Assembly (NCBI GenBank): GCA_026710875.1
Contig: JAPOQE010000113.1
Coordinates: 3,144-67,143, forward strand
Direction of reading: 5' to 3'
From: Gammaproteobacteria bacterium
GTDB lineage: Bacteria > Pseudomonadota > Gammaproteobacteria > UBA4575
DNA: 64,000 bases
A program made the position numbers and the translations under genes. Under the pieces are notes generated by a model, which was not told the origin of the DNA, made no database searches, and worked only from the letters and a program-made list of their open reading frames with translations. Positions 16,243-63,158 of the stretch are shown here, in pieces. Numbering within the stretch: the stretch's first letter is position 1; each line of letters opens with the position of its first letter.

Positions 16243-17532
16243 CTAATGGTAGGTCTTGCGGGAAGGCCTGTGCGGGGTTTTGCCTGCCCGGGTGCGCGAT
16301 GAGCGCGCCATCTTTTTTTGCGTGGCCTCATCGACGTCCTGGAATTCCGTCCACCACTCGCATAGCTTGTCTACCGGGTCACCTGCACCTGCCCGCAGGC
16401 ACAGAAAGTCGTACGCGGCACGGAAACGTGGATGCTGGTACAGGCGATACGCCTGCTTGCCTCGCTTGCGGTAAAACCGGTTCTGGAGTTCCCATACATT
16501 GCGGATCTGAAACCCCAGTCTTTTCGGAATTGCGGTAAAACGCAATTGCGAAAGTATGGTGTCTTTCATTGCTGCATCTTGTGCAACCTTCGAGGATAAA
16601 CCATCCAGCTCCAGCTGGCGTGTGAGTGCTCGCATCGGCCCCCACAGGAACACCGCATACAAAAACGAGGCAATAACCGGTTTGCCGGCGCGAATCCGTT
16701 CATCCGTGTTTTCCAGGGCTCCATGGACCAGTGCCGAAAATGTCTCCTGAGACGCATCCCCGAGTGCCTGTTCTGTCAACGGGAACAGGTGCTCGAACAA
16801 GCCGTAGTTGCGCAGGGCCTGAAAGGTCTGTACCGCATGCCCTCCATGAAACAGCTTGAGCATTTCATCGAACAGCCTGGCGGGCGGCACTTCGCCCAGC
16901 AGATAGCCTAAACGGCAAATGGTCGCTTGCGCCTGGTCTTCGATCCTGAATCCCAGCTTCGTGGCCAAACGCACGGCGCGCAGCATACGAACAGGATCTT
17001 CTCGAAAACGCAATTCAGGATCCCCGATGACGCGCAAGAGCTTGGCGTCCAGATCCTGCTGACCGGACACCAGGTCCAGCACCTGTCCAGCCTCGGGATC
17101 GTAATACAGGGCATTGATCGTGAAATCCCTGCGAAATGCGTCCTCCTCGATCGTTCCATACGTATTATCGGCAAGGATACGGCCCTGCTTGTTGACATGC
17201 GCACGACCGGCTGCCCGAAATGTCGCGACCTCCACGTAGCCCTGCGAGAAATACACGTGCACGATTCGAAACCGCCGGCCGATCACGCGGCTGTTATCAA
17301 ACTGCCTGCGCACGTCTTCCGGGTGGGCATCGGTTGCAATGTCAAAGTCCTTGGGAGAAAGCCCAAGCAGCAGGTCACGTACGCCACCGCCAACAAGGTA
17401 TGCCTGAAATCCCGCACGGTGCAGTCCGGTGATCACGCGCAGGGCATCCCGGTTGATATGGGCGACATCAATATCGACCCGTACACCGGGCCTTGGACTC
17501 GCCAAGCGTCGGTCAGTCGCAGATGGTTTCAT
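16243..17532 (-). CDS. pcnB: poly(A) polymerase I
   Basis: Nucleotidyltransferase head GGGVRDLLLG..KDFDIAT and the PcnB C-terminal RNA-binding region. Start chosen at the in-frame ATG at 17532. Confidence 0.9.
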   Translation of the reverse strand: MKPSATDRRLASPRPGVRVDIDVAHINRDALRVITGLHRAGFQAYLVGGGVRDLLLGLSPKDFDIATDAHPEDVRRQFDNSRVIGRRFRIVHVYFSQGYVEVATFRAAGRAHVNKQGRILADNTYGTIEEDAFRRDFTINALYYDPEAGQVLDLVSGQQDLDAKLLRVIGDPELRFREDPVRMLRAVRLATKLGFRIEDQAQATICRLGYLLGEVPPARLFDEMLKLFHGGHAVQTFQALRNYGLFEHLFPLTEQALGDASQETFSALVHGALENTDERIRAGKPVIASFLYAVFLWGPMRALTRQLELDGLSSKVAQDAAMKDTILSQLRFTAIPKRLGFQIRNVWELQNRFYRKRGKQAYRLYQHPRFRAAYDFLCLRAGAGDPVDKLCEWWTEFQDVDEATQKKMARSSRTRAGKTPHRPSRKTYH

Positions 17533-18001
17533 GAAACAAATTGATCTTCTGGGGCGTAGGCTGCGCCCAATATACCACCGGTTCAGGCCCTGGCACACTC
17601 TAAAACAGGCAACAACGGCCCTTACACCCCTTCACCAAGCCATTGAACCCCGGACTTGATTGGCACGACAGTCCTGCAGACCCATGGCAAAAGCGCCGAT
17701 TCAGCATGGCCTTCCAAGGGCATACAGATCGTTTGGAAGGATCAGGAAGCGCAGCCTGGAACACCCCCATGATGGGCTCTGCTGTATACCAACTGTCCCT
17801 GGCAGGCTGATCACGAACGGGGCCGTATAATCTACCTGTCTGGCAAACTTATTCTCTTAAGTCGTTATAATCTATGGGATTAATTCCAATATCCCGATTG
17901 ATTGGGAAAATCGATCATTATATTGAGTAAAATGAATTAGCAACTTTCATTCAAGTACAATATAAATGCAGCATACGTTAGAAATAATAAAGACCTGATA
18001 A

Positions 18002-20218
<2,217 letters not shown>

Positions 20219-20233
20219 CCCCCGGGAACAAGA

Positions 20234-20261
20234 GAGGCGTTTCGGACAAACGGGACGCCTC
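20234..20261 (+). terminator. candidate katG terminator hairpin (GAGGCGT...ACGCCTC)
   Basis: 7-bp inverted repeat starting 16 nt after the katG stop. The downstream tract is pyrimidine-rich but not a clean U-run. Confidence 0.3.
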
Positions 20262-20524
20262 CCTCTTACCTCCTCGAACACGACATTCCCTGTCATCCAG
20301 CACAGGCCTCGAGGCTTGCTCGACTAACCATCACCCGTCTCACCAAGACCGATATTCGCCGCAGGTTTCTGCAGGGGTTGTTTGTGCATGCTCGTGATGC
20401 CTCGGCGCCATCAAAGGCTGCTGCCAACCGCTACCCGACAAGGCGAAGGCCCGACGCCATCCGGTTTCTATTTCGTCTTCAGGAAGTATAATGGCCCATT
20501 TTCTGAACTTCATGCCGGGGCATT

Positions 20525-21181
20525 ATGGATCTGGAACTTGTCAGCTTTAACGTGTGTCCATTCGTACAGCGCAGTGTGATTACCCTGAATCATAAAAATT
20601 GCGAGTACAGAATCACCTTCATCGATTTGAGCAATCCGCCGGACTGGTTCTTGCAGATTTCACCGCTTGGCAAAGTGCCGGTACTTAAAGTCGACAGCCA
20701 TGAGGTGCTGTTCGAGTCTGCCGTAATCAACGAATTTGTTGACGATGTAACCCCGGGTACACTCAAGCCTTCGGACGCACTGGTGCTGGCCAAAAATCGG
20801 GCATGGATCGAATATGGCAGCACGTGCTTGTCCGACCTGTACATGATGGCGGATGTCGAAACCGAAGAGGAGATGCAGCAACAGATTACAGTATGTGTGG
20901 AACGGCTGCAGTATGTGGAAAATATCCTGACTGACTCGACATTTTTCAATGGCGACAGCTTCGCCCTGGTCGATGCAGCCTATGCACCCCTGTTGTTCCG
21001 CCTGGACTTCATACACGAAAAGATCGGCTTCCTGGACTGGGGCCGATTACCAAAACTGAACCAATGGAAAGAGAATCTGCTGGCTTTGGAATCCGTACAA
21101 CAGTCGATAATCGAAGATTTTGAAGGGCACTATACGAACAAAATCAGGGCACAAAACGGATACCTGGGAAGCCTCCTGTAA
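20525..21181 (+). CDS. glutathione S-transferase family protein (Cys-type active site)
   Basis: Thioredoxin-like N-domain with CPF and VPVL motifs, then a helical GST_C domain. 218 aa. Confidence 0.8.
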   Translation: MDLELVSFNVCPFVQRSVITLNHKNCEYRITFIDLSNPPDWFLQISPLGKVPVLKVDSHEVLFESAVINEFVDDVTPGTLKPSDALVLAKNRAWIEYGSTCLSDLYMMADVETEEEMQQQITVCVERLQYVENILTDSTFFNGDSFALVDAAYAPLLFRLDFIHEKIGFLDWGRLPKLNQWKENLLALESVQQSIIEDFEGHYTNKIRAQNGYLGSLL

Positions 21182-52365: not shown

Positions 52366-53217
52366 TCAGGATCCGGTCTTGAGACCGCAGAAGAATTCTT
52401 GGGCAGTCCATTGCTGAAACCATTCGCCCAGATTCGTCGTAATCTTGTCCATATCGACACCCTCTTGCAGGGCACAGTTCTCCAAGGCTTCCCCTAGGCT
52501 CTTGCCTTCCTTGAGCTGCGCCAGCAGGAGATAGCTTTCATATTCCAGGTCATCGCGCCATACCCGGTAATTGCAGCGATACACCACTACAAAGGACTTC
52601 TGGGCTTTTGGGGCGTCCATATGCCTGTCTTCATTCACCGCAGTCATGTAGGCATTGACCGGGTAATCCAGCTCCAGCAGATACAGGGCCGGATTAAACT
52701 CAAGACAAATTTCGGGCCATTGCTCACCCGGGACATTTTGTATCGCCTCCGTAGAAATCTTTTCCTTGTGCGGTGCATCGAAGACATCCTCCATCAGACG
52801 TTCGACGGTAGCCACCGCAACTACAAAAGGCTGGTGCGGAATCTCGTCGGCCTCGTTGCGCAGGTACTGCGGGAATTTGACACTCAGGCGGTTCAGGTTG
52901 TAGTACGTGGAGGGATGGCGTGTGATGTAGTCACGGACCACCTGTGCGAAACGCTCGACTCCCAACAGGTGCTCCACTGTCGGATACTCCTCTGACATGA
53001 TGTCTATAAATCGCCAGAAATACATGTCGGCGTACACCGAGATGCGCTCCAACGGTGTCAGTTTTTCAGAAGGAAGTACGGTTTGTTCAAGATCGTATGC
53101 GGCTTCGCTTCCAGGCTTGGAATTCGCCTCGACTCCAGCCTCGGCACCCTGCGGGTGACTGATAACCGAATACATCCACTGTTCGAGGCTTTCCAGCCCC
53201 GAATCATCACGAGGCAT
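52366..53217 (-). CDS. DUF2063 (MbnC/BufC-like, putative DNA-binding-domain) protein
   Basis: 283 aa overlapping the DUF692 gene by 11 nt. Typical DUF2063 partner of DUF692 enzymes (LERISVYADMYFWRFIDIMSEEYP...). Confidence 0.8.
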   Translation of the reverse strand: MPRDDSGLESLEQWMYSVISHPQGAEAGVEANSKPGSEAAYDLEQTVLPSEKLTPLERISVYADMYFWRFIDIMSEEYPTVEHLLGVERFAQVVRDYITRHPSTYYNLNRLSVKFPQYLRNEADEIPHQPFVVAVATVERLMEDVFDAPHKEKISTEAIQNVPGEQWPEICLEFNPALYLLELDYPVNAYMTAVNEDRHMDAPKAQKSFVVVYRCNYRVWRDDLEYESYLLLAQLKEGKSLGEALENCALQEGVDMDKITTNLGEWFQQWTAQEFFCGLKTGS

Positions 53218-54058
53218 GACGTAACTCGGTCATGTCGCGGAATTTTGCCGCCTTCATGACCTCGGCATGGACCTCATCGAACGACGGAATATTAGCATCC
53301 CACTCAAGCAGCGTTGCACGGTTTCCTGCACGGCGGTGTACCTCGGCATAGAGGTCCCATACAGGGTCAATAACCCGACCGTCATGCGTATCAATGCAAT
53401 GTGTACCCCTGTCTGTATGTCCGGCCAAATGAATCTGCACCACCCGGTCGTAAGGCATCGCCTCCAGATAGGCCTGGGCATCCAGCCCGTGATTGCGACA
53501 CGTGACGTAGACGTTGTTGACATCCAGCAGCAAGCCGCAGTCGGATTCCTCGGCCATGCGGGCCAGGAATTCCTCCTCGGCCATGGTGGAGTTTGCAAAG
53601 GTCAGGTAAGTCGATGGGTTTTCCAGTATCAGCGGACGCTCCATGAAATCCTGAACGGTACGGATCCGATCTACCAGGAACTTCAGGCTCTCTTCATTAT
53701 ATGGCAAGGGGTAGAGGTCGTGACCGTTTCGTCCATGTACCCCGGTCCAGCAGACATGGTCTCCCAGCCAGTGAGCATTCACCCGTTTGGCCAGGGTTTT
53801 CAGTTTTGACAGGTAGTCAAAGTCAATGGGGTCCGTACTGCCAATCGACATGGACACCCCATGCATGACAATCGGATAGCGCTCGGCAATCTGGTCCAGC
53901 ACACGTACGGGATTCCCATCAGTCTCCATGAAGTTCTCGGACATGATCTCGAACCAGTCGATTTGCGGCCACTGTTCAAGAATGTGGTTGAAATGGACTG
54001 TACGCAGCCCGATTCCGAGTCCAAGGTCAGGAAAGCCCCAGCGGTTTTCTACAGACAT
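53207..54058 (-). CDS. DUF692 (MbnB/TglH/BufB-like) TIM-barrel non-haem iron enzyme
   Basis: GLGIGLR N-terminal motif and xylose-isomerase-like TIM barrel (WFEIMSENFM...HLAGHTDRGTHCIDTHD) characteristic of DUF692/UPF0276. Confidence 0.85.
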   Translation of the reverse strand: MSVENRWGFPDLGLGIGLRTVHFNHILEQWPQIDWFEIMSENFMETDGNPVRVLDQIAERYPIVMHGVSMSIGSTDPIDFDYLSKLKTLAKRVNAHWLGDHVCWTGVHGRNGHDLYPLPYNEESLKFLVDRIRTVQDFMERPLILENPSTYLTFANSTMAEEEFLARMAEESDCGLLLDVNNVYVTCRNHGLDAQAYLEAMPYDRVVQIHLAGHTDRGTHCIDTHDGRVIDPVWDLYAEVHRRAGNRATLLEWDANIPSFDEVHAEVMKAAKFRDMTELRHAS

Positions 54059-54218
54059 AGAAACTACCTAGTGAATGAGAGTTGTCTGGTAAACATGGTA
54101 CCAGTATAGAAAGTATTCAAGCAATCGACGAGGGCATGCTGAATCCAGCAGCCCTGTCGATGCTCAAATCGTTTTAGGTTAAGTCAGAACTTTACAACGA
54201 ACGTGTATTAAGTACTGC

Positions 54219-54596
54219 TTATCCTTCCATGTGGCTGGGGTCTACCGGTAGTTGGCAACCGCCCTTGCCTTTACATGAGTTCTTGCCGGCACAGCCGTGA
54301 TCACCTGACTTGCAGCCACCCTGGCATTTACAGGCATTCTGGCCCTTACAGGCATGCTTTTCATACGTGTGGGCTGGGTCACAACCACCTTTACCCTTGC
54401 ATGAGTTCTTGCCGGCGCAACCGTGGTCACTCGATTTACAACCACCTTTGCCTTTACATTCATTCTGACCTTTGCAGCTATGCTTAGGGCAACCTGCATC
54501 TGGGTCACCAGCCAAGGCAACCGTCTGGCTTCCTGCCACCATTCCAGCTGCTGCAGCTACCATCAGTTTATTAAAATCACGACGCTTCATGTCCAT
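54219..54596 (-). CDS. secreted (Tat-type RRDF signal) 14-Cys repeat peptide; candidate RiPP metallophore precursor
   Basis: MDMKRRDFNKLMVAAAAGMVAGSQTVALA signal (AxA cleavage), then two approximately 40-aa repeats: C-x-KGQN-x-CKG-KGG-CKS-x-DHGCAGKNSCKGKGGC. GGAGG SD 9 nt upstream. Immediately 5' of the DUF692-DUF2063 pair. Confidence 0.7.
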   Translation of the reverse strand: MDMKRRDFNKLMVAAAAGMVAGSQTVALAGDPDAGCPKHSCKGQNECKGKGGCKSSDHGCAGKNSCKGKGGCDPAHTYEKHACKGQNACKCQGGCKSGDHGCAGKNSCKGKGGCQLPVDPSHMEG

Positions 54597-54627
54597 CGTT
54601 TATAACCTCCAACAATTATTATGTGTG

Positions 54628-54690
54628 TCTTGCGGTGCAAGGTGCAATTTCTGTCTACAGAAACGATTTATTGAACCTAGGGATTATACA
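54628..54690 (-). promoter_or_regulatory. candidate promoter (-10 TATAAT) and palindromic operators upstream of the Cys-rich peptide gene
   Basis: On the minus strand: TATAAT, then the perfect 16-bp palindrome TTTCTGTAGACAGAAA and a second IR CTTGCACCGCAAG, located between the promoter and the RBS. Confidence 0.4.
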
Positions 54691-54899
54691 GAATTGAAAC
54701 AAGAGGTGGCGAAAAATACCTGATATGAGCTATCTATAGTTGGATTTGAAATACCAATCTCTTGAATCTAACTAAACCTCAGTTTGGTCCTATATCGTCA
54801 TTCAGGCTGAGTAACCCCAGGTTGTAATCAGAGTTCCTTGCTAGATAATGAAGTTCACATTCAGTAAAGGATATGAAATTTCCCAGTTCATAGTCTTTC

Positions 54900-56726
54900 T
54901 CAGTAGCAGAGATCAATTACAATCTCTGTAGGGTATTCACGATGCTTGTCTGTGATTGAATCTACAATTCCAAGATCAAGAATTAGCGCGCCTGCATAGA
55001 ATTTTCCTTGTAGCCTGCTTGCAACAGCCTCCTGATACTCATTCCCATCTTGGTCCTCACATTCAATATTGAGCACATCATCCGAGCGTCTGATCATTGC
55101 TGTTCCAGGCACATCAACATGCCAAAGCCCTCGTTTATTCGAGACAGTGCAAACTGCCCCTTTCCCTTTACATCCTGGCGCCTTGAATTTGATTTGCTGG
55201 TGGGCATCGTTCATGACTGTAGCGCAGCCAGTTATTACCACCATGCAAAAGGCAGCAGTGGTTGTTGATGTACCATGAAGTGGATCTAAATTAGCATCCC
55301 CTCGAGTTTGTATAGGACCACCACTGTAATGATTACGCTCCTTGAACTGCACACCCACGTGACCATCGATGTTTAGGAATGGGGCCAGAAAGCCCATATA
55401 CCCTACACCCAGTGTGGCACGATGACGGTAGATCACCTCAGTTTGTGAGGCCTGCAGATACTCAAGTACAGACTGTCCAAGATTAACAATACCAGGCTCA
55501 TCACCATTCGCACCACCTATTGGAATGGCATTACAGGTTGTAGCCGATGAACAGACATAGGGGAGACCCTTAATTTGATCAGCATCGCGGTCTGTAGGAT
55601 CATCCGCATAACCATATCCACCACGGAAGCGCCAGTTGCCCATCTTCATCTCGGCACCGATGCTGTAGACCATCTGGTCTTCATACACATCGCCCCAGAA
55701 GTCGGCCTCTTCCCAGTTCTTCCACATGATGTCTGCGGCTATCAGCAAGTTCCCATCCATAAATGTTTCATTGGATATACCAATTCCAATAGTACGTGGC
55801 TCCTCAATAGGGATAGATGCATAGCGTACCTTTCCGGTGTCCCCATATCCGTCAAATACAACATCGTTATCCACCTCAAATGCAGGCACCGCAACAATGT
55901 CGTCAAACACATGCTGCAGTTCCGTCATATAGAACAAGCCCAACCGAGTACCCGGCACAATATCCTCATAGGTCAAGCCAATCGTGCCACGCATCCCCGT
56001 GTCATGGGTTACGCCAGAAGTGGCTGCAAGTCCCAAGTCCAGGTAGGCGTACGTTACAGTAGCGGCACCACCTATGGATACCTGTTCATTCAGCTCCCAG
56101 CCAAGTGCGAAGTTCGCACCCAGTACAATGAATTCTGCACCGAGTCCCAGAGTCTCCTCTACATGGCGGAATTCCACGCCAATCCCTGACACAGCTGTCA
56201 GGCCAGCACCGAGTACAGCTGGCAAACCCAGTGGTCTCAGATCCTGAGTGACACCCACCTGGGGCACAATGTAGCCTTCGTTTCCATTGACTGCATCATC
56301 AAATGTGGCATTGCTGATACAGAAGCCAGCCCCACATCCTGCTAATGTACCTGGTCCTAAGGCTGTACCACCATGTCTAGGATTCGGCGCATTCGGAGCA
56401 TATATATCAAGAACTTCTTGAGGGACAGCACCTGCATATGTGGGAAGCGCAAGAGCACCCGAGTGATCCAGGCGCACTTCAGGCTTGTAGTAGGTGGCAC
56501 CAAACGTGAATTCAGTACCCGTCCAGTCCGTTAATGCTGCAGGGTTACCAAAGATCGCGGACACATTATCCAGAGGCTTGGCGATACTCGTACCCGCCAT
56601 ACCTGCTGAACGTGGCGCCAGCACGTTGTGCAGGTCGTAGCCATACGGACCCGCATAGGCAGTTCCCGATATCGCAAGCGAGGCCAACAGCCCCATTGCT
56701 AACCACCGATTAAAAACTTTCCTCAT
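54900..56726 (-). CDS. FadL/TodX (Toluene_X) family outer-membrane transporter with a C-proximal Cys-rich insert
   Basis: Signal peptide (AISGTAYA). FadL-type N-terminal hatch motif (SAGMAGTSIAKPLDNVSAIFGNPAAL). Terminal aromatic (..IDLCY). 608 aa versus about 430 for typical FadL. 6 Cys cluster near the C-terminus, including the KAPGCKGKGAVC element. Confidence 0.75.
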   Translation of the reverse strand: MRKVFNRWLAMGLLASLAISGTAYAGPYGYDLHNVLAPRSAGMAGTSIAKPLDNVSAIFGNPAALTDWTGTEFTFGATYYKPEVRLDHSGALALPTYAGAVPQEVLDIYAPNAPNPRHGGTALGPGTLAGCGAGFCISNATFDDAVNGNEGYIVPQVGVTQDLRPLGLPAVLGAGLTAVSGIGVEFRHVEETLGLGAEFIVLGANFALGWELNEQVSIGGAATVTYAYLDLGLAATSGVTHDTGMRGTIGLTYEDIVPGTRLGLFYMTELQHVFDDIVAVPAFEVDNDVVFDGYGDTGKVRYASIPIEEPRTIGIGISNETFMDGNLLIAADIMWKNWEEADFWGDVYEDQMVYSIGAEMKMGNWRFRGGYGYADDPTDRDADQIKGLPYVCSSATTCNAIPIGGANGDEPGIVNLGQSVLEYLQASQTEVIYRHRATLGVGYMGFLAPFLNIDGHVGVQFKERNHYSGGPIQTRGDANLDPLHGTSTTTAAFCMVVITGCATVMNDAHQQIKFKAPGCKGKGAVCTVSNKRGLWHVDVPGTAMIRRSDDVLNIECEDQDGNEYQEAVASRLQGKFYAGALILDLGIVDSITDKHREYPTEIVIDLCY

Positions 56727-57294
56727 TGGTTACCCTCCCAGTTTTAGTAGTCTTGTTTGATTGGTGACTAATGAAAATTACCAACAAATTTTTACTTAAT
56801 TACTCACGCAATTATGAAGCCCTTACCTATGAAGGTAAAAGCATCACGGTTGTTTTGTATTGACAGATGTGCCACAGAGATCGAATTGGAACTGGACTTT
56901 TGTAAGCAGTATCAATTCAAACTCTCCCTTAATCCTCTCTTGTTCAGCTTTTGCAGCCTGATTATTTTGTTCCAACAGCACCAAGTTCTTAGGCTTCTTC
57001 GTATCAGACCTGCCTGTGTGTAACACATTCTGAACTGATCCTACCAAGGCCTGTTCACTGCATTACCTATAGGCGCTGCATTTGATTAACATAAGTGTAA
57101 TGAATATTACAGTGAAATCAAGGCAAATGGTAGCCCGCAGCCTGAATCAAATCCCAAGGAAACCTTCGTGCCTTCGTATCTCTTGAGCCCTGGAAATGTG
57201 AATTCCAGTTGTAATCCCCAAAACGTGATCAATTAATAATCAAATACGTGAACGAGAAGGGTCAGAATCCATGGTACGCAGTATCGGAATTTAC

Positions 57295-57449
57295 CAGACA
57301 AGCCCTGTCTGATTATTAAAGCGAGGACTCCGAGACGGGCGGCACACGCCCTGAAAGTCAAATCAGCAAGGCTGCCGATTTGACTTTCCAAGGACTACAT
57401 TTCAAGCCTGTACACACCCAGGTGTGCAGCCAAGGGGCCATACGGCCCC
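57295..57449 (-). ncRNA. hairpin-dense structured region (possible cis-regulatory leader, attenuator or sRNA)
   Basis: Five perfect stem-loops within about 155 nt: CAGACA/TGTCTG; GGGCG/CGCCC; 12-bp GAAAGTCAAATC/GATTTGACTTTC; CACAC/GTGTG; GGGGCC/GGCCCC. They lie in the roughly 0.7-kb untranslated gap upstream of the FadL-like gene. Confidence 0.3.
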
Positions 57450-57458
57450 AATCGATCA

Positions 57459-57566
57459 CTAGAAGCTTATTAAACCTGCAAGATATAGCGTAAGCACGAT
57501 CACTCCGATTCCGAAGACCATCGCAGTTACGAAAACCATTACGTCATTTCCTCCATCTCCGGCCAT
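57459..57566 (-). CDS. 35-aa single-TM small protein (MAGDGGNDVMVFVTAMVFGIGVIVLTLYLAGLISF)
   Basis: Below the 60-aa ORF-track cutoff. Strong SD AAAGGAGG 7 nt upstream of ATG. Hydrophobic helix. Immediately followed by the GGGGCC hairpin. Confidence 0.45.
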   Translation of the reverse strand: MAGDGGNDVMVFVTAMVFGIGVIVLTLYLAGLISF

Positions 57567-57656
57567 TATGTGCCTCCTTTGTAATTGTTGTTACCCAGTG
57601 TCATTTATAGTTATGTCCAGGCATTATTGATGATAACGCCTGCAACTGCAAAATTC

Positions 57657-58106
57657 TCAATTCTTTTCACCCTCCGGTTCACTGTCCACAGCACAGACAT
57701 CCGGATTGTCCAGCAACTCCTTCAGGTAAGCCGCAGTGCTTACCCTCTCCCCGGTGGTGATCCACAACCGCAATGCGCTGGCTCCCTCAATCATGAACGC
57801 GGTTTCCTTCGCACCATCCGCATGGTCTTTGGTCACCGGCAGCTTTTCAATTTCAGGTGAACCGACATCCATGTGTTCGCCCAGAATATCTTCAACCAGT
57901 GTCTGCTTGGTGTCCTTGGGCAGACCATCATACTCTGCCAAGTATAAAACGGCACCGTACAGATAGTAAATCGCATACCGGCGCTTGCGCGTGGCCTCCT
58001 GAAGGTCTCCGTCCTCCAGCTTGGCCAGGGTATCCGTCACAAAAGGGGTCAGCGCTGCCGTTATCCCCTTGATTTCACTACCCTCTTTTTTCGATGTCCA
58101 CCACAT
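57657..58106 (-). CDS. hypothetical acidic protein (149 aa)
   Basis: Clean ORF co-directional with, and 35 nt downstream of, the GST-like gene. No family recognised. Confidence 0.5.
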   Translation of the reverse strand: MWWTSKKEGSEIKGITAALTPFVTDTLAKLEDGDLQEATRKRRYAIYYLYGAVLYLAEYDGLPKDTKQTLVEDILGEHMDVGSPEIEKLPVTKDHADGAKETAFMIEGASALRLWITTGERVSTAAYLKELLDNPDVCAVDSEPEGEKN

Positions 58107-58141
58107 GGCCAGTCATTTATTCCCGTATATACGTGATCTAT

Positions 58142-58924
58142 CTAGTAGTCTGACACTTCTACCGAACTAAGTCGCTTGTTTTTTATGTCCTCCCGCGTAG
58201 GAAGCAGGTCATAGGCGATAATATTCTGCCCGGAATAGCTCTTGTGTGCACGAATACGGTCCAGCCAGGCCTTGATATTGGGGCGCTGGTCAACGACTGC
58301 GCCTTCCCCAGCCTCGCATAGAAGATGAATATAGGCCGTCCAGTGGATATCTGCGAATGAGTAACTGCCGATGATAAATTCGTTGTTCGCGAGCTGCTCA
58401 TCGAGGGCATCCAGGGCCGCTTCCAGCCCTTCACGGGCACGATCCACTGCCGTATGGTCCGGATCCTTGCCCAGAATCGGTGCGTAGACCCGCTGCTTCA
58501 CGATTTCCTCAACATGGAGGCCAACCTCACTGCAGGCCACATCGGACCAGTAGTTTTGAGCTGCCAGCAGTGCCGCATTTTGCGGCGGCAGGCGCCGGCC
58601 AAGGCCCCGCGCCTCGATATAGCTCATGATGCCCTGCTCTCCAGCCACGATGTAATCGGCTTCCTTCAAGGCGGGTATAGTGCCATAGGGCGAGACCTCA
58701 AGATAAGCACTCGAGTGCTGTTCGTTCACCGAGATATCCAGAATCCCGCAATCGGTTTCCATGCCCATTTCCACTGCAGTGATCAGGCACTTCAGGGTGC
58801 CGGCATCTCCAGGTGAGCCCAGCAACTGCAACACGTACTGGGTTTTCTTCATGTCACCAGTGGCCCCGTACCCGCTACTCGCGTCAGGGTCTGCAGCTCG
58901 GCCAAATTCAAACAGATCACTCAT
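58142..58924 (-). CDS. GST-like protein, paralogue 1 (Cys-type N-domain, FADIHW C-domain motif)
   Basis: Thioredoxin-like N-domain with a conserved Cys (TLKCLITAVEMG) and C-terminal GST helical domain. One of three paralogues sharing (S/A)F(S/A)(F/Y)AD(I/V)HW. Confidence 0.7.
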   Translation of the reverse strand: MSDLFEFGRAADPDASSGYGATGDMKKTQYVLQLLGSPGDAGTLKCLITAVEMGMETDCGILDISVNEQHSSAYLEVSPYGTIPALKEADYIVAGEQGIMSYIEARGLGRRLPPQNAALLAAQNYWSDVACSEVGLHVEEIVKQRVYAPILGKDPDHTAVDRAREGLEAALDALDEQLANNEFIIGSYSFADIHWTAYIHLLCEAGEGAVVDQRPNIKAWLDRIRAHKSYSGQNIIAYDLLPTREDIKNKRLSSVEVSDY

Positions 58925-58993
58925 TGCACGAATTGCTCCAGGTGCTTTACTTCAAAATCAGCCACTCGCATTGCGGCCCATCGCGCAGGGTGG

Positions 58994-59695
58994 TCAGGCC
59001 ACATTCCTGAATTCCCTGCCCTGGATCTCAGATGCTGACGACAAGGCCTCATAGGGAGATCCGTGCCCACCTTTGCGGGATTTCATACGCTCGAACCAGG
59101 ATTTCAGATTTGCTCGGGAATCAATCAGGCTGTCCCGGCCACAGACATGACAAAGATGCAGGTAGGCAATCCAGTGAATGTCTGCATAGGAAAATGCCCC
59201 GACGATATACTCCTTGTCGGACAAGGTAGCATTCATACCATCGAAGATCTTCTGCAGGTCCTCTTCGGCCGCAGCCGTTCCCTGCCCGCCGGTGTCGGCG
59301 CCCGGATTGAACACGGCATCCTGCAACAAGACATTGATCTGCGGCATGACCCGGAACTGTCCAATCTCGATCCAGTAGTTCTGTTGCCCCAGGTGTGCAG
59401 CCTTGCGAGGTGTAAGGGGCTGTCCGCCACCGCGAACGCCCAGATAGGGTAGAACCGCTGCAATTCCGGAGGTTACAAAATCGCCATTGATCAGGCACGG
59501 GAGCTTGCCGAAGGGAGACAGGGACTTGAGGGTTGCATCAGGATACTGATCATCCAGGATATCAACCAGCTCGACTTTCAGTTTGACGCCTTTTTCAGCA
59601 GCAAGGTACAGGCATTTACAGGTATCGGCATGCCCGGGGTGGCCGAGCAGTCGAAGTTCTTCGCCAGATTTCTTTTTTCGTCCGAACAGTCCCAT
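58994..59695 (-). CDS. GST-like protein, paralogue 2
   Basis: CKCLYLAAEKG N-domain Cys. FSYADIHWIAYLHL motif. 69-nt spacing to paralogue 1. Confidence 0.7.
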   Translation of the reverse strand: MGLFGRKKKSGEELRLLGHPGHADTCKCLYLAAEKGVKLKVELVDILDDQYPDATLKSLSPFGKLPCLINGDFVTSGIAAVLPYLGVRGGGQPLTPRKAAHLGQQNYWIEIGQFRVMPQINVLLQDAVFNPGADTGGQGTAAAEEDLQKIFDGMNATLSDKEYIVGAFSYADIHWIAYLHLCHVCGRDSLIDSRANLKSWFERMKSRKGGHGSPYEALSSASEIQGREFRNVA

Positions 59696-59884
59696 TGTCA
59701 GTTGAACGCCAGCATTAAAGGTAGACGTGTGCCGAGGGTACTTTGATTGATGGAAGGTACAGCTTTTATGTGCAGTCCAACCGGGGCTGGAAGCAAACTC
59801 CTGTTTGCTTCACGCCCAGTTGATCGCGTCTCGTTTAGGAATAGCGCCCGGCGCTATCGAACGATCGCTTCTGTTAAGGGGTTG

Positions 59885-60091
59885 CTACTCCTTAAACCAT
59901 TTGAACGGATGTTCACCTGCGAGCTTGAGATAGATCCATACGTTAATGACCAGGGCCACCAGCAGTACCACTGCTCCGGCAAGGGCCATCAAGGGATCGG
60001 TATGGGCTGCTGAAAGGCCAAGCATGTTCATGCCGTAAAACACAGCCGCGGAAAAGATTAGCATCACAACGATAGCTCTGAATGAATACAT
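59885..60091 (-). CDS. small two-TM membrane protein (68 aa)
   Basis: AGGAGG SD 9 nt upstream. Two hydrophobic helices. It sits between GST paralogues 2 and 3. Confidence 0.5.
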   Translation of the reverse strand: MYSFRAIVVMLIFSAAVFYGMNMLGLSAAHTDPLMALAGAVVLLVALVINVWIYLKLAGEHPFKWFKE

Positions 60092-60379
60092 TAGTCACAC
60101 CTCCTGACTCAGATTCTATAAACGGGTATATGTTTATTCAGTACAGGGACACCAAGAGAACTGTAAACACCATGACTCTCGGCATCCTCGGCACACCTGC
60201 ACCCCTGACCCTCTATGGAGTCGTTAAAGCACGTCTTGTACCGCACCCAACCCGAGTCCTGGGACCGAGTTCAATGCATACGACCTGCTTCAGTACTCCA
60301 GTGGACCAGGGCATTACTTTGCAGGCAAGCCCACTTCAAATATACAAATTAATGTGAAAAAAGAAATCCCGTTTTTCTT

Positions 60380-61063
60380 TTAGACATTGATCTGCACATC
60401 ACGCAGGCTGTTGCCACTGATGTCTGTTTTAGTCGGAAGCACATCGTAGGCCCTGATGTTCTCTTTGCTGGTGCTAGGATGCGACTTGACCAGTCCCCAC
60501 CATTTCGCAACGGCCGGACGTGATTCCACAATATCACTGCTGTCAGCCAGCATGCACCCTTGTGCCATGGCCGCCCAGTGGACATCAGCAAAGCTGAATC
60601 CTCCGCAGATGAAATCTCCACGCAACGCCGGATTGGACTTCGATGCCAAGTGCGAGTTCAGGAGATCAAAGCAAGCCGAAGCTGCTGCTGCATCGCCCCC
60701 GCCAGCCATGATTCCCGAGACCGCAGGCATCGCATTATTGGTTGCCAGTTGGTTCCACTGATACATGATGGCACGTACAACACCATTACGTGGACTCAAG
60801 GATGGGCCAAAGCCTTTGTCGTTCAGATAGGACATGATGCCCTCCTGGCCGCAGACCACAAAATCCACGTCTTTCAGTGCCGGCAGCAAGCCGTGCGGTG
60901 CAAGCGCCTGAACTTCAGCTGAGCCCGCTCCGCCGTTGGGATCAACATAATGTGAGTCGAGATCCACACCTTTTTCGGCAGCGGTGAACAGGCACATCGC
61001 ACTGCGCAGGCAAGAGGGGTTCCCATAAAATTTCATTTTGTCCTGCAAATGATCACCTAACAT
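60380..61063 (-). CDS. GST-like protein, paralogue 3
   Basis: CLFTAAEKG N-domain Cys. FSFADVHWAAMAQG motif. Confidence 0.7.
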   Translation of the reverse strand: MLGDHLQDKMKFYGNPSCLRSAMCLFTAAEKGVDLDSHYVDPNGGAGSAEVQALAPHGLLPALKDVDFVVCGQEGIMSYLNDKGFGPSLSPRNGVVRAIMYQWNQLATNNAMPAVSGIMAGGGDAAAASACFDLLNSHLASKSNPALRGDFICGGFSFADVHWAAMAQGCMLADSSDIVESRPAVAKWWGLVKSHPSTSKENIRAYDVLPTKTDISGNSLRDVQINV

Positions 61064-61455
61064 TTTTTATACCTCTTTATGTTTGGAGTTATTGGTTTAT
61101 GTCTGGGGTTACCACTACTGGCCCCTGGTATCAAAATAGTCAGGATAGGATACGCTGCCATTGCAGCGTCACGCATCATCACGTTCAGTATCCTCCTGAT
61201 ATCCGTAAATGCTAGGGCATTTGCCCTTAGCTCCTCTCTTTCAATAATGCTCATTTCGAGCAGTCATGAAATCTGTCGTCAGTATCCAAGCGTGTGCACA
61301 GATATGACACCAGCCTTAATTCTTATCCTTTATCCTGTCAGGTTCTATGGTGTTTGCCACAGACACCTGGCAAGAGTTCAATACAATTTCCTTATTCTTA
61401 TTGTCTCCTGGGTTTTCGGTACATGCCCCGACTCCCCTTTCCGTCTTGTTCCCTT

Positions 61456-61486
61456 CTTTAGCGCACGTGCCCGGAAAACCCGGGCA
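61456..61486 (-). terminator. strong GC-rich hairpin downstream of the alkB-like gene
   Basis: Perfect 11-bp inverted repeat CACGTGCCCGG-aaaac-CCGGGCACGTG about 25 nt after the stop. No clean U-tract, so it may be a processing/stability element or a factor-binding site rather than an intrinsic terminator. Confidence 0.35.
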
Positions 61487-61511
61487 CGTGACAACTAAAA
61501 GTTACGTTTAC

Positions 61512-62666
61512 TTAAGCGTAACCGATTTGACGGTTCAGACGATCCGCAATTGCGCGTTCGCCTTCCGAAGCACGCTCTCTGTCCCACTTTGCCAATTCCT
61601 TCTTAAAGTACATATGGTGAAGTGGTGGAATGAGTGCTATGGCAAACAAGGTGAAGTAACCCCATCCGGTGTTGGGCGCACCTACGTCGTCCAGCTCCCA
61701 GAAGTGTGTTTCACCACGGTCATGGTGATCAGCCTGACGGCCAATCTCAATGAAGAACCAACTGGTGAACGCGGTTGAGTTATCCCACGAATGTCTGTAG
61801 TCGATCGGCTGGCCTTTCTCCCGAATCAAGCCATAGTGCTCCATATAGTTGAGCGCTTCCAACTCGAAGTTCGAGATCAGCCAAATCGTTGCCAAGCTGG
61901 CAAGACCGATCCAGCCCCCTGCAAACCAGAACAGGAACAGGGTTGGCAGGCTCATGGCATAGCCACGCAGCCAGCGGTTTTCCCAAGTGAACCAGGACTT
62001 GCCCAGTCGCTCGAGACGCTGCTTCTCCATTCTGTAGAGGAAGCGAGACTGTCCGATTCCAGCCAATGGGTAGTGTCGGTAAATGGTTCTTCCACGAGGA
62101 GACGTGGCAGGATCGTCTTCATGTGCCAGTTCCAGATGGTGGTTATAGACATGCGCATAGCTGAAGTGAGCCTTGCCACTCAACGCCATCATTGTGCGTG
62201 AAATGACGAAAGCAAATCCCTTCGTATGGCTTAACTCATGCCCATAAATGATACCAATGCCGGCAAAGATACCTGTTGAGAGCGTTGCACCAATCAGGTC
62301 AAGGCCGGTGATTCCATTCTGGAAGGGCAGGATTCCGAACATCATATGATCGAATCCGGCGCTTACTGGAACACCACTGACATATTGATAGACGCGCCAG
62401 GCCATGGCCAGCTGCAGGAGTACAAATATTCCCAGCATGCCATACATTATGCTGTTCTGTAGCCAGGGCACACCCATCGTTTCACCGTTGTTGTCGTATC
62501 CCGCACCTGCAGGACGAAACTTCAACAGTGTGTCAATCACGATACCTACGCCCAGCAGCAGTAATCCTATCCAGGAAAACATGCCGCCCATCAGCACACC
62601 GAACATCGTAACGATGATCAGGAACGGGGCGAACCAGTACCTTGCGTTAATCAAAATTTTCTTCAT
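61512..62666 (-). CDS. AlkB/XylM-family integral-membrane non-haem diiron hydroxylase (alkane 1-monooxygenase-like)
   Basis: All four His boxes of the AlkB family are present: HELSHTK, HVYNHH..EDDPATS, NYMEHYGL, RQADHHD. Multiple TM helices. 384 aa. Confidence 0.85.
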   Translation of the reverse strand: MKKILINARYWFAPFLIIVTMFGVLMGGMFSWIGLLLLGVGIVIDTLLKFRPAGAGYDNNGETMGVPWLQNSIMYGMLGIFVLLQLAMAWRVYQYVSGVPVSAGFDHMMFGILPFQNGITGLDLIGATLSTGIFAGIGIIYGHELSHTKGFAFVISRTMMALSGKAHFSYAHVYNHHLELAHEDDPATSPRGRTIYRHYPLAGIGQSRFLYRMEKQRLERLGKSWFTWENRWLRGYAMSLPTLFLFWFAGGWIGLASLATIWLISNFELEALNYMEHYGLIREKGQPIDYRHSWDNSTAFTSWFFIEIGRQADHHDRGETHFWELDDVGAPNTGWGYFTLFAIALIPPLHHMYFKKELAKWDRERASEGERAIADRLNRQIGYA

Positions 62667-62699: not shown

Positions 62700-63158
62700 C
62701 AAATTTAATAATTTTTAGCATATCTTTGTCTTTTGCTCTCCCTTTTGGCCTATATACCGCATGTACATCTACCCTTCCAGGGAGCATTAGATACGCCCGA
62801 TTATACAAGTATGAATCGGTAACTGCAAATACCCTGACGATCGCAAAACGGGTATCGGTATATTCGTCATAAACGTAATTAATTCAATCACTTATGCGGT
62901 TCATGAGGGTCCCTGACGTGGTGGGTCAGTGTATCGGAAGTTTCCGCATATATCCAGGCTGCACCATCACCACATTCATGGGATTTTCCAGCTCTTGAAG
63001 GCCTCGGGTTGGAGGAAGGATTTCCGGCACATACAGCACGCAAAATGACCCTGTGATCTTCCCTCGCCGACGGGATGCAGGAATACCGGACCCTCGGGTC
63101 GAATGGCAGCACTGCCTGCTGCTGTCATCCAACGCGTGTATGAAATCCTTCCTGCGGA

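Follow-up and report, generated by a model that had tools for sequence, protein, structure and literature searches.

The minus-strand gene array at positions 52366-62666 of the gammaproteobacterial DNA stretch analysed here (64,000 nt; the window) is most probably a composite of two evolutionarily separable units, adjacent on the leading strand and neighbours by descent in one clade, and not one pathway. The first unit (~62.8-54.9 kb) is a cluster that encodes an uncharacterised AlkB-family oxygenase together with glutathione transferase (GST)-fold proteins, small membrane proteins and an outer-membrane porin, and the second (54.7-52.4 kb) is a self-contained cassette of the Buf2 bufferin type. 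The original prediction had proposed a single module in which copper handling is coupled to hydrocarbon oxidation, as in the pairing of methanobactin with particulate methane monooxygenase (pMMO), and had offered independent operons that merely share orientation as the alternative. The unified module is not supported: the peptide is of the bufferin and not the methanobactin type, the oxygenase is predicted to use iron and not copper, the two units adjoin in one clade only, and in the closest relatives a terminator and a promoter-like site lie between them. For the buf cassette it is the alternative of an independent operon that is supported.

A conserved cluster around AlkB, GST227 and tm68

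The best 80 of 313 loci encoding AlkB relatives in a genome collection were examined by tblastn mapping. Their AlkB-like orthologues are 67-99% identical to the window protein, and the 99% identical AlkB is encoded on OZ243969.1 (locus L010), the 1.87-Mb chromosome of an uncultured gammaproteobacterium. The hydroxylase gene, the gene of one GST-fold protein (GST227) and the gene of a 68-aa membrane protein (tm68) form a core that is found in 37 of the 80 loci and is co-directional in all 37. GST227 orthologues adjoin AlkB in each of them, and tm68 comes immediately after the GST and reductase genes. Related loci are found in sponge-symbiont, Thiotrichales and Methylophaga genomes. The link drawn in the original prediction between the hydroxylase, the GSTs, the micro-proteins and the porin is real: this set is conserved as a cluster in distant genomes. 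When the open reading frames (ORFs) of the 37 loci were clustered, a Fer2-FNR reductase was counted in 29, a ferredoxin in at least 18, the porin in 17, the p149 protein in 14 and a globin in 13. The neighbourhoods in which AlkB is 82%, 78% and 71% identical to that of the window, the last being from Methylophaga sulfidovorans, share one gene order: AlkB, (truncated globin), Fer4_19 ferredoxin, GST, Fer2-FAD-NAD reductase, 68-71 aa protein, (GST, GST, 135-aa protein, 37-aa peptide) and FadL/TodX porin. Only closer relatives have p149, p35 and the additional GST paralogues, and GST233 and GST260 have orthologues only at loci with an AlkB at least 81% identical to that of the window. No published description of an AlkB cluster with GST, ferredoxin reductase, truncated globin or FadL channel was found in the searchable literature.

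The AlkB copies outside the 37 core loci stand alone, and some genomes hold two or three copies. Three AlkB-like copies are present on each of OZ245760.1 (L029/L031/L087) and OX044353.1 (L043/L050/L055), which are genomes of ~2-2.7 Mb from uncultured gammaproteobacteria, and in each the complete ferredoxin/GST/reductase/tm68 cluster lies beside one AlkB copy only.

The window keeps orthologues of all cluster components but the globin, ferredoxin and reductase, and tblastn found neither these genes nor their remnants in the spacers or in the whole 64 kb. With no such trace, the idea that the spacers are recognisable pseudogenes of the redox genes was rejected. The same three genes are absent from all eight loci of clade A, which comprises L010 and seven further metagenome-assembled genomes with AlkB 90% identical to that of the window, several of them apparently from sponges. 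In L052 and L085 (Ca. Oxydemutatoraceae, Ca. Porisulfidus) a reductase gene lies ~9 kb upstream of alkB, accompanied in L085 by the ferredoxin gene, which shows that the redox partners can be unlinked. All genes in clade A are under purifying selection, with ratios of nonsynonymous to synonymous divergence (dN/dS) of 0.04-0.29 at a synonymous divergence (dS) of 0.4-2.2, mostly 0.7-1.4; the ratio is 0.08 for alkB and 0.05 for tm68.

Other genes accompany the cluster in some lineages. Acyl-CoA dehydrogenase genes follow it in L007 and L008, and a DUF1326 gene paired with a PpoB2/DUF2182 gene lies beside or inside it in L006/L020 (17053-18770), L007 (13934-16012), L018, L021 and L023. This pair is on the same strand and interleaved with a p149-like gene in L007 and L023. 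PpoB2 transfers copper to tyrosinase in Marinomonas (PMC2855505), and the homologous DmdE and DmdF are required for dimethylsulfoniopropionate (DMSP) demethylation and are tied to oxidative-stress protection in Roseobacters (PMC12992908).

Separation of the AlkB cluster from the buf cassette

The buf genes follow the porin in seven of the eight clade-A loci, where AlkB is at least 90% identical to that of the window, and are missing from the vicinity of all 29 other core-cluster loci. Clade A is collinear from ClpB through a DUF4156 lipoprotein gene to ProS, which makes the adjacency of AlkB and buf one element of a general synteny. Outside the clade, the nearest BufB homologues (76-82% identity) belong to three-gene cassettes in unrelated neighbourhoods; the four closest of these cassettes adjoin transposases, cytochrome bd genes, pyrroloquinoline quinone (PQQ) enzymes or molybdoenzymes, and none is near AlkB. 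Co-occurrence of the GST/alkB and DUF692 blocks in other genomes, which had been named as a check on the unified module, is thus absent beyond the clade from both sides (0/29 core loci and 0/4 outside cassettes).

The junction between the units was compared with that in L010, which is of the same species as the window, and in L016. In both loci a strong terminator with a 13-14 bp stem and a T-run follows directly after the porin. Approximately 190 nt before bufA2 are also conserved in both, including the promoter-like site TCGCCA-18-TATAAT, and the sequence further upstream varies. The content of the junction is variable as well: it holds a TIR-domain gene in L012 (17672-18616) and a lipoprotein gene in L016 and the window, and in L013 positions 17500-21152 are unrelated sequence with no buf within 3.6 kb of the porin. 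The clade-restricted adjacency, the unrelated contexts of the outside cassettes and the junction signals together argue for separate units.

The bufferin cassette

Judged by its profile matches, the cassette is a Buf2-type bufferin cluster, a known kind, and one more ordinary member of a family published in 2024. BufB matches Pfam PF05114 (MbnB_TglH_ChrH) with 358 bits and passes the equivalog cutoff of NF050167 (MNIO_BufB; 358.8 bits). The match of BufC is at the family level only, with NGO1945_C at 21.3 bits, below its cutoff, and the HvfC equivalog at 61 bits against 142. The BufA2 precursor has a signal peptide followed by two 6-Cys repeats and contains 14 Cys in total; the repeat, KH.CKG.N.CKG.GGCK.GD.GCAGKNSCKG.GGC, occurs twice and its pattern is also found in the precursors of L090-L093. 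This precursor matches NF050166 (BufA2) in two stretches with 50.7 bits, under the cutoff of 60, a shortfall that is minor because the model has 79 positions and the protein is a tandem duplicate. Precursors of the BUF_6/12Cys class are defined by a signal at the N-terminus and by 6 or 12 conserved Cys, and bufferins are described as periplasmic copper-stress buffers that act through Cys-derived thiooxazoles and not as copper-acquisition agents (PMC11626156). Neither an MbnA-like ORF nor an MbnT/TonB receptor gene was found in the 50-64 kb region.

The signal peptide of the window precursor carries the motif RRDFNK. A twin-arginine (Tat)-like motif, (K/N)RR(D/N)(F/L)N(K/R), opens all five precursors, namely those of the window, L090 (9610-9831), L091 (9543-9926), L092 (9538-9906) and L093 (9459-9833). 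The bufferin papers describe Sec signal peptides (PMC11626156; PMC12452194).

Proteins of the AlkB cluster

The closest solved structures to the hydroxylase are those of AlkB, 8sbb and 8f6t (E=3e-28), and five hydrophobic segments are predicted in the protein. The motifs H143ELSH147, H172VYNHH177 and N273YMEHYGL280 align to 8sbb and are invariant across 15 orthologues. The third His box, R310-Q311-A-D-H314-H315, stands opposite RHSDHH of 8sbb, and Gln311 is invariant in the same 15 orthologues. A QxxHH box of this kind is known from front-end lipid desaturases. From its motifs the hydroxylase is predicted to be a diiron His-box enzyme and not a copper enzyme, and by family likeness n-alkane hydroxylation is a candidate activity. 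A tblastn search of the window, a weak test, gave no match to rubredoxin. The exact AlkB protein was found only on ~1.3-kb contigs in a sequence look-up.

Among solved structures, the GSTs of the window most resemble plant Phi-class GSTs. The assignment of GST227 leans mainly on its PDB matches, which are to Phi-class GSTs (E=2e-8) and SspA, because its Pfam GST_N_2 match lies below the cutoff. Where Phi-class GSTs have their catalytic Ser, GST227 carries an invariant Cys, within a G.P.C motif that is at least 95% conserved in 37 orthologues. GST233 and GST260 match Pfam GST_N / GST_C above the cutoffs, and the best PDB match of GST260 is a poplar Phi-class GST (E=2e-23). Pairwise HMMER alignments place a His at the catalytic-residue position in GST233 and an Asp in GST260, and indicate that the Glu-Ser pair that binds glutathione is replaced in all three proteins (G-Q, S-G and G-E). 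Weak matches of the GSTs to the SspA and FzlA models were also obtained.

Of the micro-membrane-proteins that had been predicted, the 68-aa protein, predicted to have two helices, and the 35-aa peptide, predicted to have one, are genuine and conserved (dN/dS 0.05-0.08). The tm68 gene has a strong Shine-Dalgarno sequence and its product two hydrophobic segments, and p35 shares the motif GGNn.MVF...G..iI..tLylsG in clades A and B. The p149 family is tiny, with 18 matches among 1.84 billion representative proteins; its AlphaFold2 model is all-helical (pLDDT 82.6) and gave no significant fold match in the PDB.

The hydrophobic-substrate porin belongs to the FadL/TodX family as had been proposed, and the 608-aa ORF that represented it is an in-frame fusion of the porin gene and a lipoprotein gene. 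An FGNPAAL motif near the N-terminus marks the N-terminal hatch (NPA motif), and the PF03349 (Toluene_X) match is above the cutoff. The porins of relatives have 502-510 aa and the C-terminus ...WSWHAGFALTWNFQY (end ALTWNFQY). The window porin has no C-terminal aromatic beta-signal, and its frame continues into the lipoprotein gene. Relative to L016, which has a separate 124-aa lipoprotein gene (17487-17861) beyond a terminator, ~165 bp are missing from the window. The lost segment runs from the last strand of the porin and its stop codon through the terminator into the beginning of the lipoprotein gene, and the joint between the two frames is at about 55251/55252, where there is a short microhomology, GCTG(C/T)CT. 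In L010 the porin is intact and a lipoprotein gene is lacking, and an exact-match look-up gave no other record of the fused protein. The fusion is private to this assembly and may be a real deletion or an assembly error.

Layout of the array and its spacers

The co-directional ten-kb array of the original prediction is real in that all genuine genes at 52366-62666 are on the minus strand (Table 1). Fourteen features had been counted; eleven conserved protein-coding genes were confirmed, and the 65-aa ORF that was probably among the fourteen is non-coding. The gene classes were confirmed by Pfam and NCBIfam, and the proposed mix of a membrane diiron hydroxylase, GSTs, a hydrophobic-substrate porin and a Cys-rich ribosomally synthesised and post-translationally modified peptide (RiPP) is broadly right. 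Short gaps had been described except for two structured regions. Both of these spacers do hold conserved hairpins, some with compensatory changes, and the gaps are not uniformly short: in order from alkB to bufC they are 448, 288, 189, 69, 35, 90, 732, 303, 160 and -11 nt.

Orientation alone is weak evidence for linkage, because the minus strand carries ~71% of the long ORFs of the window, the GC skew is negative across the whole window, and a second minus-strand run of ten genes is present at 7.1-17.6 kb. The run under study itself extends into clpB, which lies upstream of alkB on the same strand.

Table 1. Features of the array at 52366-62666 and its flanking control sites, in minus-strand order
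Feature	Coordinates	Strand	Evidence
Promoter-like site TTTGCA-18-TATAAT upstream of alkB	62800..62829	-	10/12 consensus matches
AlkB-like membrane diiron hydroxylase (predicted), 384 aa	61512..62666	-	Pfam FA_desaturase 88.9 bits
Structured non-coding spacer, alkB-GST227	61064..61511	-	Conserved hairpins, no Rfam match
GST227, core GST-fold protein	60380..61063	-	Pfam GST_N_2 24.0 bits vs cutoff 25; PDB matches
tm68, 68-aa membrane protein, two predicted helices	59885..60091	-	No Pfam family; conserved in 37 loci
GST233, GST paralogue	58994..59695	-	Pfam GST_N and GST_C
GST260, GST paralogue	58142..58924	-	Pfam GST_C; PDB match to poplar Phi-class GST
p149, 149-aa all-helical protein	57657..58106	-	No Pfam/NCBIfam family; conserved with the cluster in 14 loci
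p35, 35-aa single-helix membrane peptide	57459..57566	-	AGGAGG ribosome-binding site; dN/dS 0.08
Non-coding 732-nt gap before porin	56727..57458	-	Hairpins after p35 stop and near-invariant block
FadL/TodX-family outer-membrane channel, without last beta-strand and stop codon	55252..56726	-	Pfam Toluene_X 34.3 bits vs 29.7
Lipoprotein gene fragment, in-frame with porin	54900..55251	-	ITGC lipobox kept; no Pfam family
Spacer with bufA2 control region, promoter-like site 54683-54712 (TCGCCA-18-TATAAT)	54597..54899	-	10/12 matches
BufA2-type bufferin precursor, 125 aa	54219..54596	-	NCBIfam BufA2 50.7 bits vs cutoff 60
BufB, MNIO (DUF692) bufferin maturase	53207..54058	-	NCBIfam MNIO_BufB 358.8 bits vs cutoff 310
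BufC, DUF2063/HvfC-type partner	52366..53217	-	Pfam DUF2063 62.6 bits vs 27.2; 11-nt overlap with BufB

The promoter-like site before alkB, which is a consensus match only, is found in the same place in L010 and L016, as is the one before bufA2. The 448-nt spacer between alkB and GST227 sits where relatives have the globin and ferredoxin genes. A perfect hairpin (61464-61490) lies just after the alkB stop codon, and two further conserved hairpins lie within 61064-61300. All three hairpins can still pair in seven other sequences, where compensatory changes offset the differences from the window/L010 pair; this amounts effectively to two lineages and modest support. No U-tract follows any of the hairpins in this spacer or in the 732-nt gap. 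The first hairpin was rejected as a REP-like (repetitive extragenic palindromic) repeat, since it occurs once in the window. In the 732-nt gap, hairpins after the p35 stop codon are accompanied by a near-invariant ~85-nt block (57066-57149) in nine clade-A sequences in which synonymous sites are near saturation; this block may be a control region of the porin gene. No sigma-70 consensus was found on the gene strand in the gap or the block, and Rfam searches of 50-64 kb (E up to 1) matched no family in either spacer. A search of the minus strand of the window for intrinsic terminators gave two weak hits only, both within bufC.

Several ORFs in these spacers were rejected as genes. The 65-aa ORF (61057-61254) is conserved only within the same species, and the same holds for a 139-aa plus-strand ORF (61079-61498); the alignment of this spacer in clade A is indel-rich. 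ORFs of 52 aa and 67 aa in the 732-nt gap are not conserved in the clade-A alignment.

Proposed functions and alternative explanations

The set of AlkB, GST, micro-protein and porin genes is an uncharacterised variant of the AlkB/XylM-type oxygenase clusters. In the mechanism that we propose for it, a small hydrophobic substrate would be admitted by the FadL/TodX-type outer-membrane channel and oxidised by the membrane diiron hydroxylase, probably together with the two-helix tm68 protein. Electrons in the relatives would pass from NAD(P)H to the Fer2-FNR (XylA-like) reductase and on to the small 4Fe-4S ferredoxin, and in the lineage of the window these redox partners would be encoded elsewhere in the genome. 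The invariant Cys of GST227 may react as a thiol, either with the oxidised product or with a redox intermediate. In the separate cassette, BufB and BufC would convert Cys of the exported BufA2 precursor to copper-binding heterocycles that buffer periplasmic copper, by homology to the characterised system of Caulobacter.

A single functional module, in which a RiPP handles copper for AlkB/GST oxidation of hydrocarbons or electrophiles and the genes are co-transcribed in the manner of methanobactin and pMMO, appears very improbable. The co-directionality of all genes favours it, and so does an adjacency kept in seven of eight clade-A species despite a dS of ~1; in the window the porin terminator is deleted, which makes read-through into buf possible. 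DUF1326 and PpoB2-like genes also stand at the same end of the cluster elsewhere, and PpoB2 is a copper-transfer protein in Marinomonas (PMC2855505), yet this pair is no evidence for the analogy with methanobactin and pMMO. The adjacency is accounted for by regional collinearity. Outside the clade, buf is missing from the surroundings of all 29 core clusters and AlkB from those of all four cassettes, and the closest relatives have a terminator and a separate promoter-like site at the junction. AlkB-type enzymes use a His-coordinated diiron site, for which the His boxes are present, and the peptide resembles a bufferin and not a methanobactin (MbnB 52 bits against 325, no MbnA, no TonB receptor). 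Bufferins, moreover, buffer copper stress and do not acquire copper (PMC11626156).

A number of points do weigh against the composite of an oxygenase cluster and a separate bufferin cassette. The synteny of both units is kept in seven of eight clade-A species despite near-saturated synonymous divergence, and selection could be the source of this. Transcripts may read through the array, as the porin terminator is deleted in the window, and the hairpins after alkB and p35 have no U-tracts and so are not canonical terminators. The putatively metal-handling DUF1326 and PpoB2/DUF2182 neighbours in other lineages leave a small probability of a recurrent metal or oxidant link. The hydroxylase of the window has no linked electron donor, and the GSTs, to judge from the missing Glu-Ser motif, may not be users of glutathione. 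The substrate and the roles of the GSTs are purely inferred.

A serious rival explanation concerns the function of the first unit, and we regard it as rather unlikely. Under this explanation the cluster is not a pathway of hydrocarbon catabolism but an envelope or redox-stress system, in which a membrane lipid or quinone of the cell itself is modified by the AlkB-like enzyme and the GST-fold proteins have SspA-like redox or regulatory roles without glutathione conjugation. The QADHH box, which resembles that of front-end lipid desaturases and not the HSDHH of AlkB, fits such a role, as do the GSTs without the Glu-Ser motif and with weak SspA and FzlA matches, and the conserved core holds no alcohol or aldehyde dehydrogenase genes. 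The globin and the DUF1326/DUF2182 pair, the latter connected with oxidative-stress protection in Roseobacters (PMC12992908), are frequent neighbours, and the cluster is kept in symbiont genomes of about 1.9 Mb. Against this reading stand the FadL/TodX channel for exogenous hydrophobic compounds that belongs to the cluster at 17 loci, and the acyl-CoA dehydrogenase genes that follow it in L007 and L008. The NYxEHYGL signature is present, the best structural relatives of the enzyme are AlkB proteins, and the XylA-like reductase arrangement resembles that of the xylene and cymene monooxygenases.

It is improbable that the first unit is a decaying relic in a symbiont lineage with a reduced genome, its hydroxylase inactive after the loss of ferredoxin, reductase and globin and, in this strain, of the last strand of the porin as well. 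The three redox genes are indeed gone without remnants from all eight clade-A loci and from the window, the window porin is truncated and fused, and no rubredoxin match was found in the window by a weak test. Against decay stand dN/dS values of 0.04-0.10 for AlkB, GST227, tm68, p35 and the porin at a dS of ~0.7-1.4 in clade A, and reading frames that are intact in eight species. Unlinked partners are plausible, as L052 and L085 keep their ferredoxin or reductase genes ~9 kb away, and the porin fusion is limited to this assembly, the porin of L010 being normal.

An extension of the oxygenase reading in which the adjacency of AlkB and buf is itself functional is offered as an improbable speculation. 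The cluster would then be an undescribed oxygenase pathway of marine sulfur-oxidising or methylotrophic Gammaproteobacteria, including sponge symbionts, that acts on a small hydrophobic substrate, for example an alkene or a methylated sulfur compound, and captures the product with a thiol, and it would have a lineage-specific metal or oxidant partner at its 3' end, either DUF1326 with PpoB2/DUF2182 or, in the clade of the window, buf.

The more interesting result of this analysis is a by-product, namely a divergent AlkB-family hydroxylase, ~70% identical across several orders, that is associated with a Cys-type GST, tm68, a ferredoxin and reductase, a globin and a FadL channel. This cluster is kept, sometimes with two or three AlkB copies, in sponge-symbiont genomes of ~2 Mb. 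Identification of the substrate would show what abundant symbionts and Methylophaga oxidise and would add a new set of partners for AlkB. For annotation, the lesson is not to equate a long series of leading-strand genes in one direction with an operon.

Comparison with known systems

The enzyme of the window shares with the AlkB systems (Pseudomonas putida GPo1 AlkBGT and Fontimonas thermophila AlkB) the membrane fold of the FA_desaturase superfamily, the HELxH, HxxxHH and NYxEHYGL motifs and a C-terminal xDHH. It differs from the solved AlkBs in scoring only ~100 bits and in having QADHH where canonical AlkB has HSDHH, with an invariant Gln taking the place of the first His in box 3. AlkB works with rubredoxin and rubredoxin reductase, whereas the clusters of the relatives carry a 4Fe-4S ferredoxin and a Fer2-FNR reductase and the window has none linked. 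The cluster is further distinguished by a Cys-type GST and a 68-aa membrane protein as integral components and by having no alkS-, alkH- or alkJ-type genes.

XylMA and CymAaAb are two-component membrane monooxygenases with a FadL-type channel (XylN, CymD). The relatives of the window cluster resemble them in combining an AlkB-family hydroxylase with a FadL/TodX channel and a reductase built of a plant-type 2Fe-2S domain at the N-terminus and an FNR module. This cluster adds a mini-ferredoxin, a truncated globin, GST-fold proteins and micro-membrane proteins; it does not include the downstream aromatic alcohol and aldehyde dehydrogenases, and the window has no reductase either. Alkene pathways that combine a monooxygenase with a GST are also known, such as isoprene IsoABCDEF with IsoI/J and the styrene oxide GST. 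The isoprene and styrene oxygenases are soluble diiron or flavin enzymes and their GSTs have canonical glutathione sites, which by sequence alignment those of the window do not, and the window cluster has no dehydrogenase for a conjugate. What is shared is that genes for an oxygenase and for GST-fold proteins are neighbours, an arrangement suggestive of the capture of an electrophilic oxidation product by a thiol.

In methanobactin operons, as in the buf cassette, an MNIO enzyme and its partner turn the Cys of a ribosomal peptide into copper ligands. The window cassette differs in that its maturase scores only 52.2 bits against the MbnB model TIGR04159 (cutoff 325) and in that an MbnA-like short precursor, an MbnT/TonB receptor and a MATE exporter are lacking. 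Methanobactin is a secreted chalkophore that is paired with the copper enzyme pMMO, whereas a bufferin is a periplasmic buffer and the oxygenase beside this cassette is an iron enzyme by its motifs. The closest counterpart of the cassette is bufA2-bufB2-bufC2 of Caulobacter vibrioides. The window differs from Caulobacter Buf2 in a precursor that falls just below the BufA2 cutoff, has 14 Cys and carries a twin-arginine-like signal, and in having no SigF/NrsF genes nearby. The two have in common the precursor-MNIO-DUF2063 order without a DoxX gene, the export signal and the two 6-Cys repeats (PMC11626156; PMC12452194), and by homology to the Caulobacter system the window cassette is predicted to form thiooxazoles and to buffer copper.

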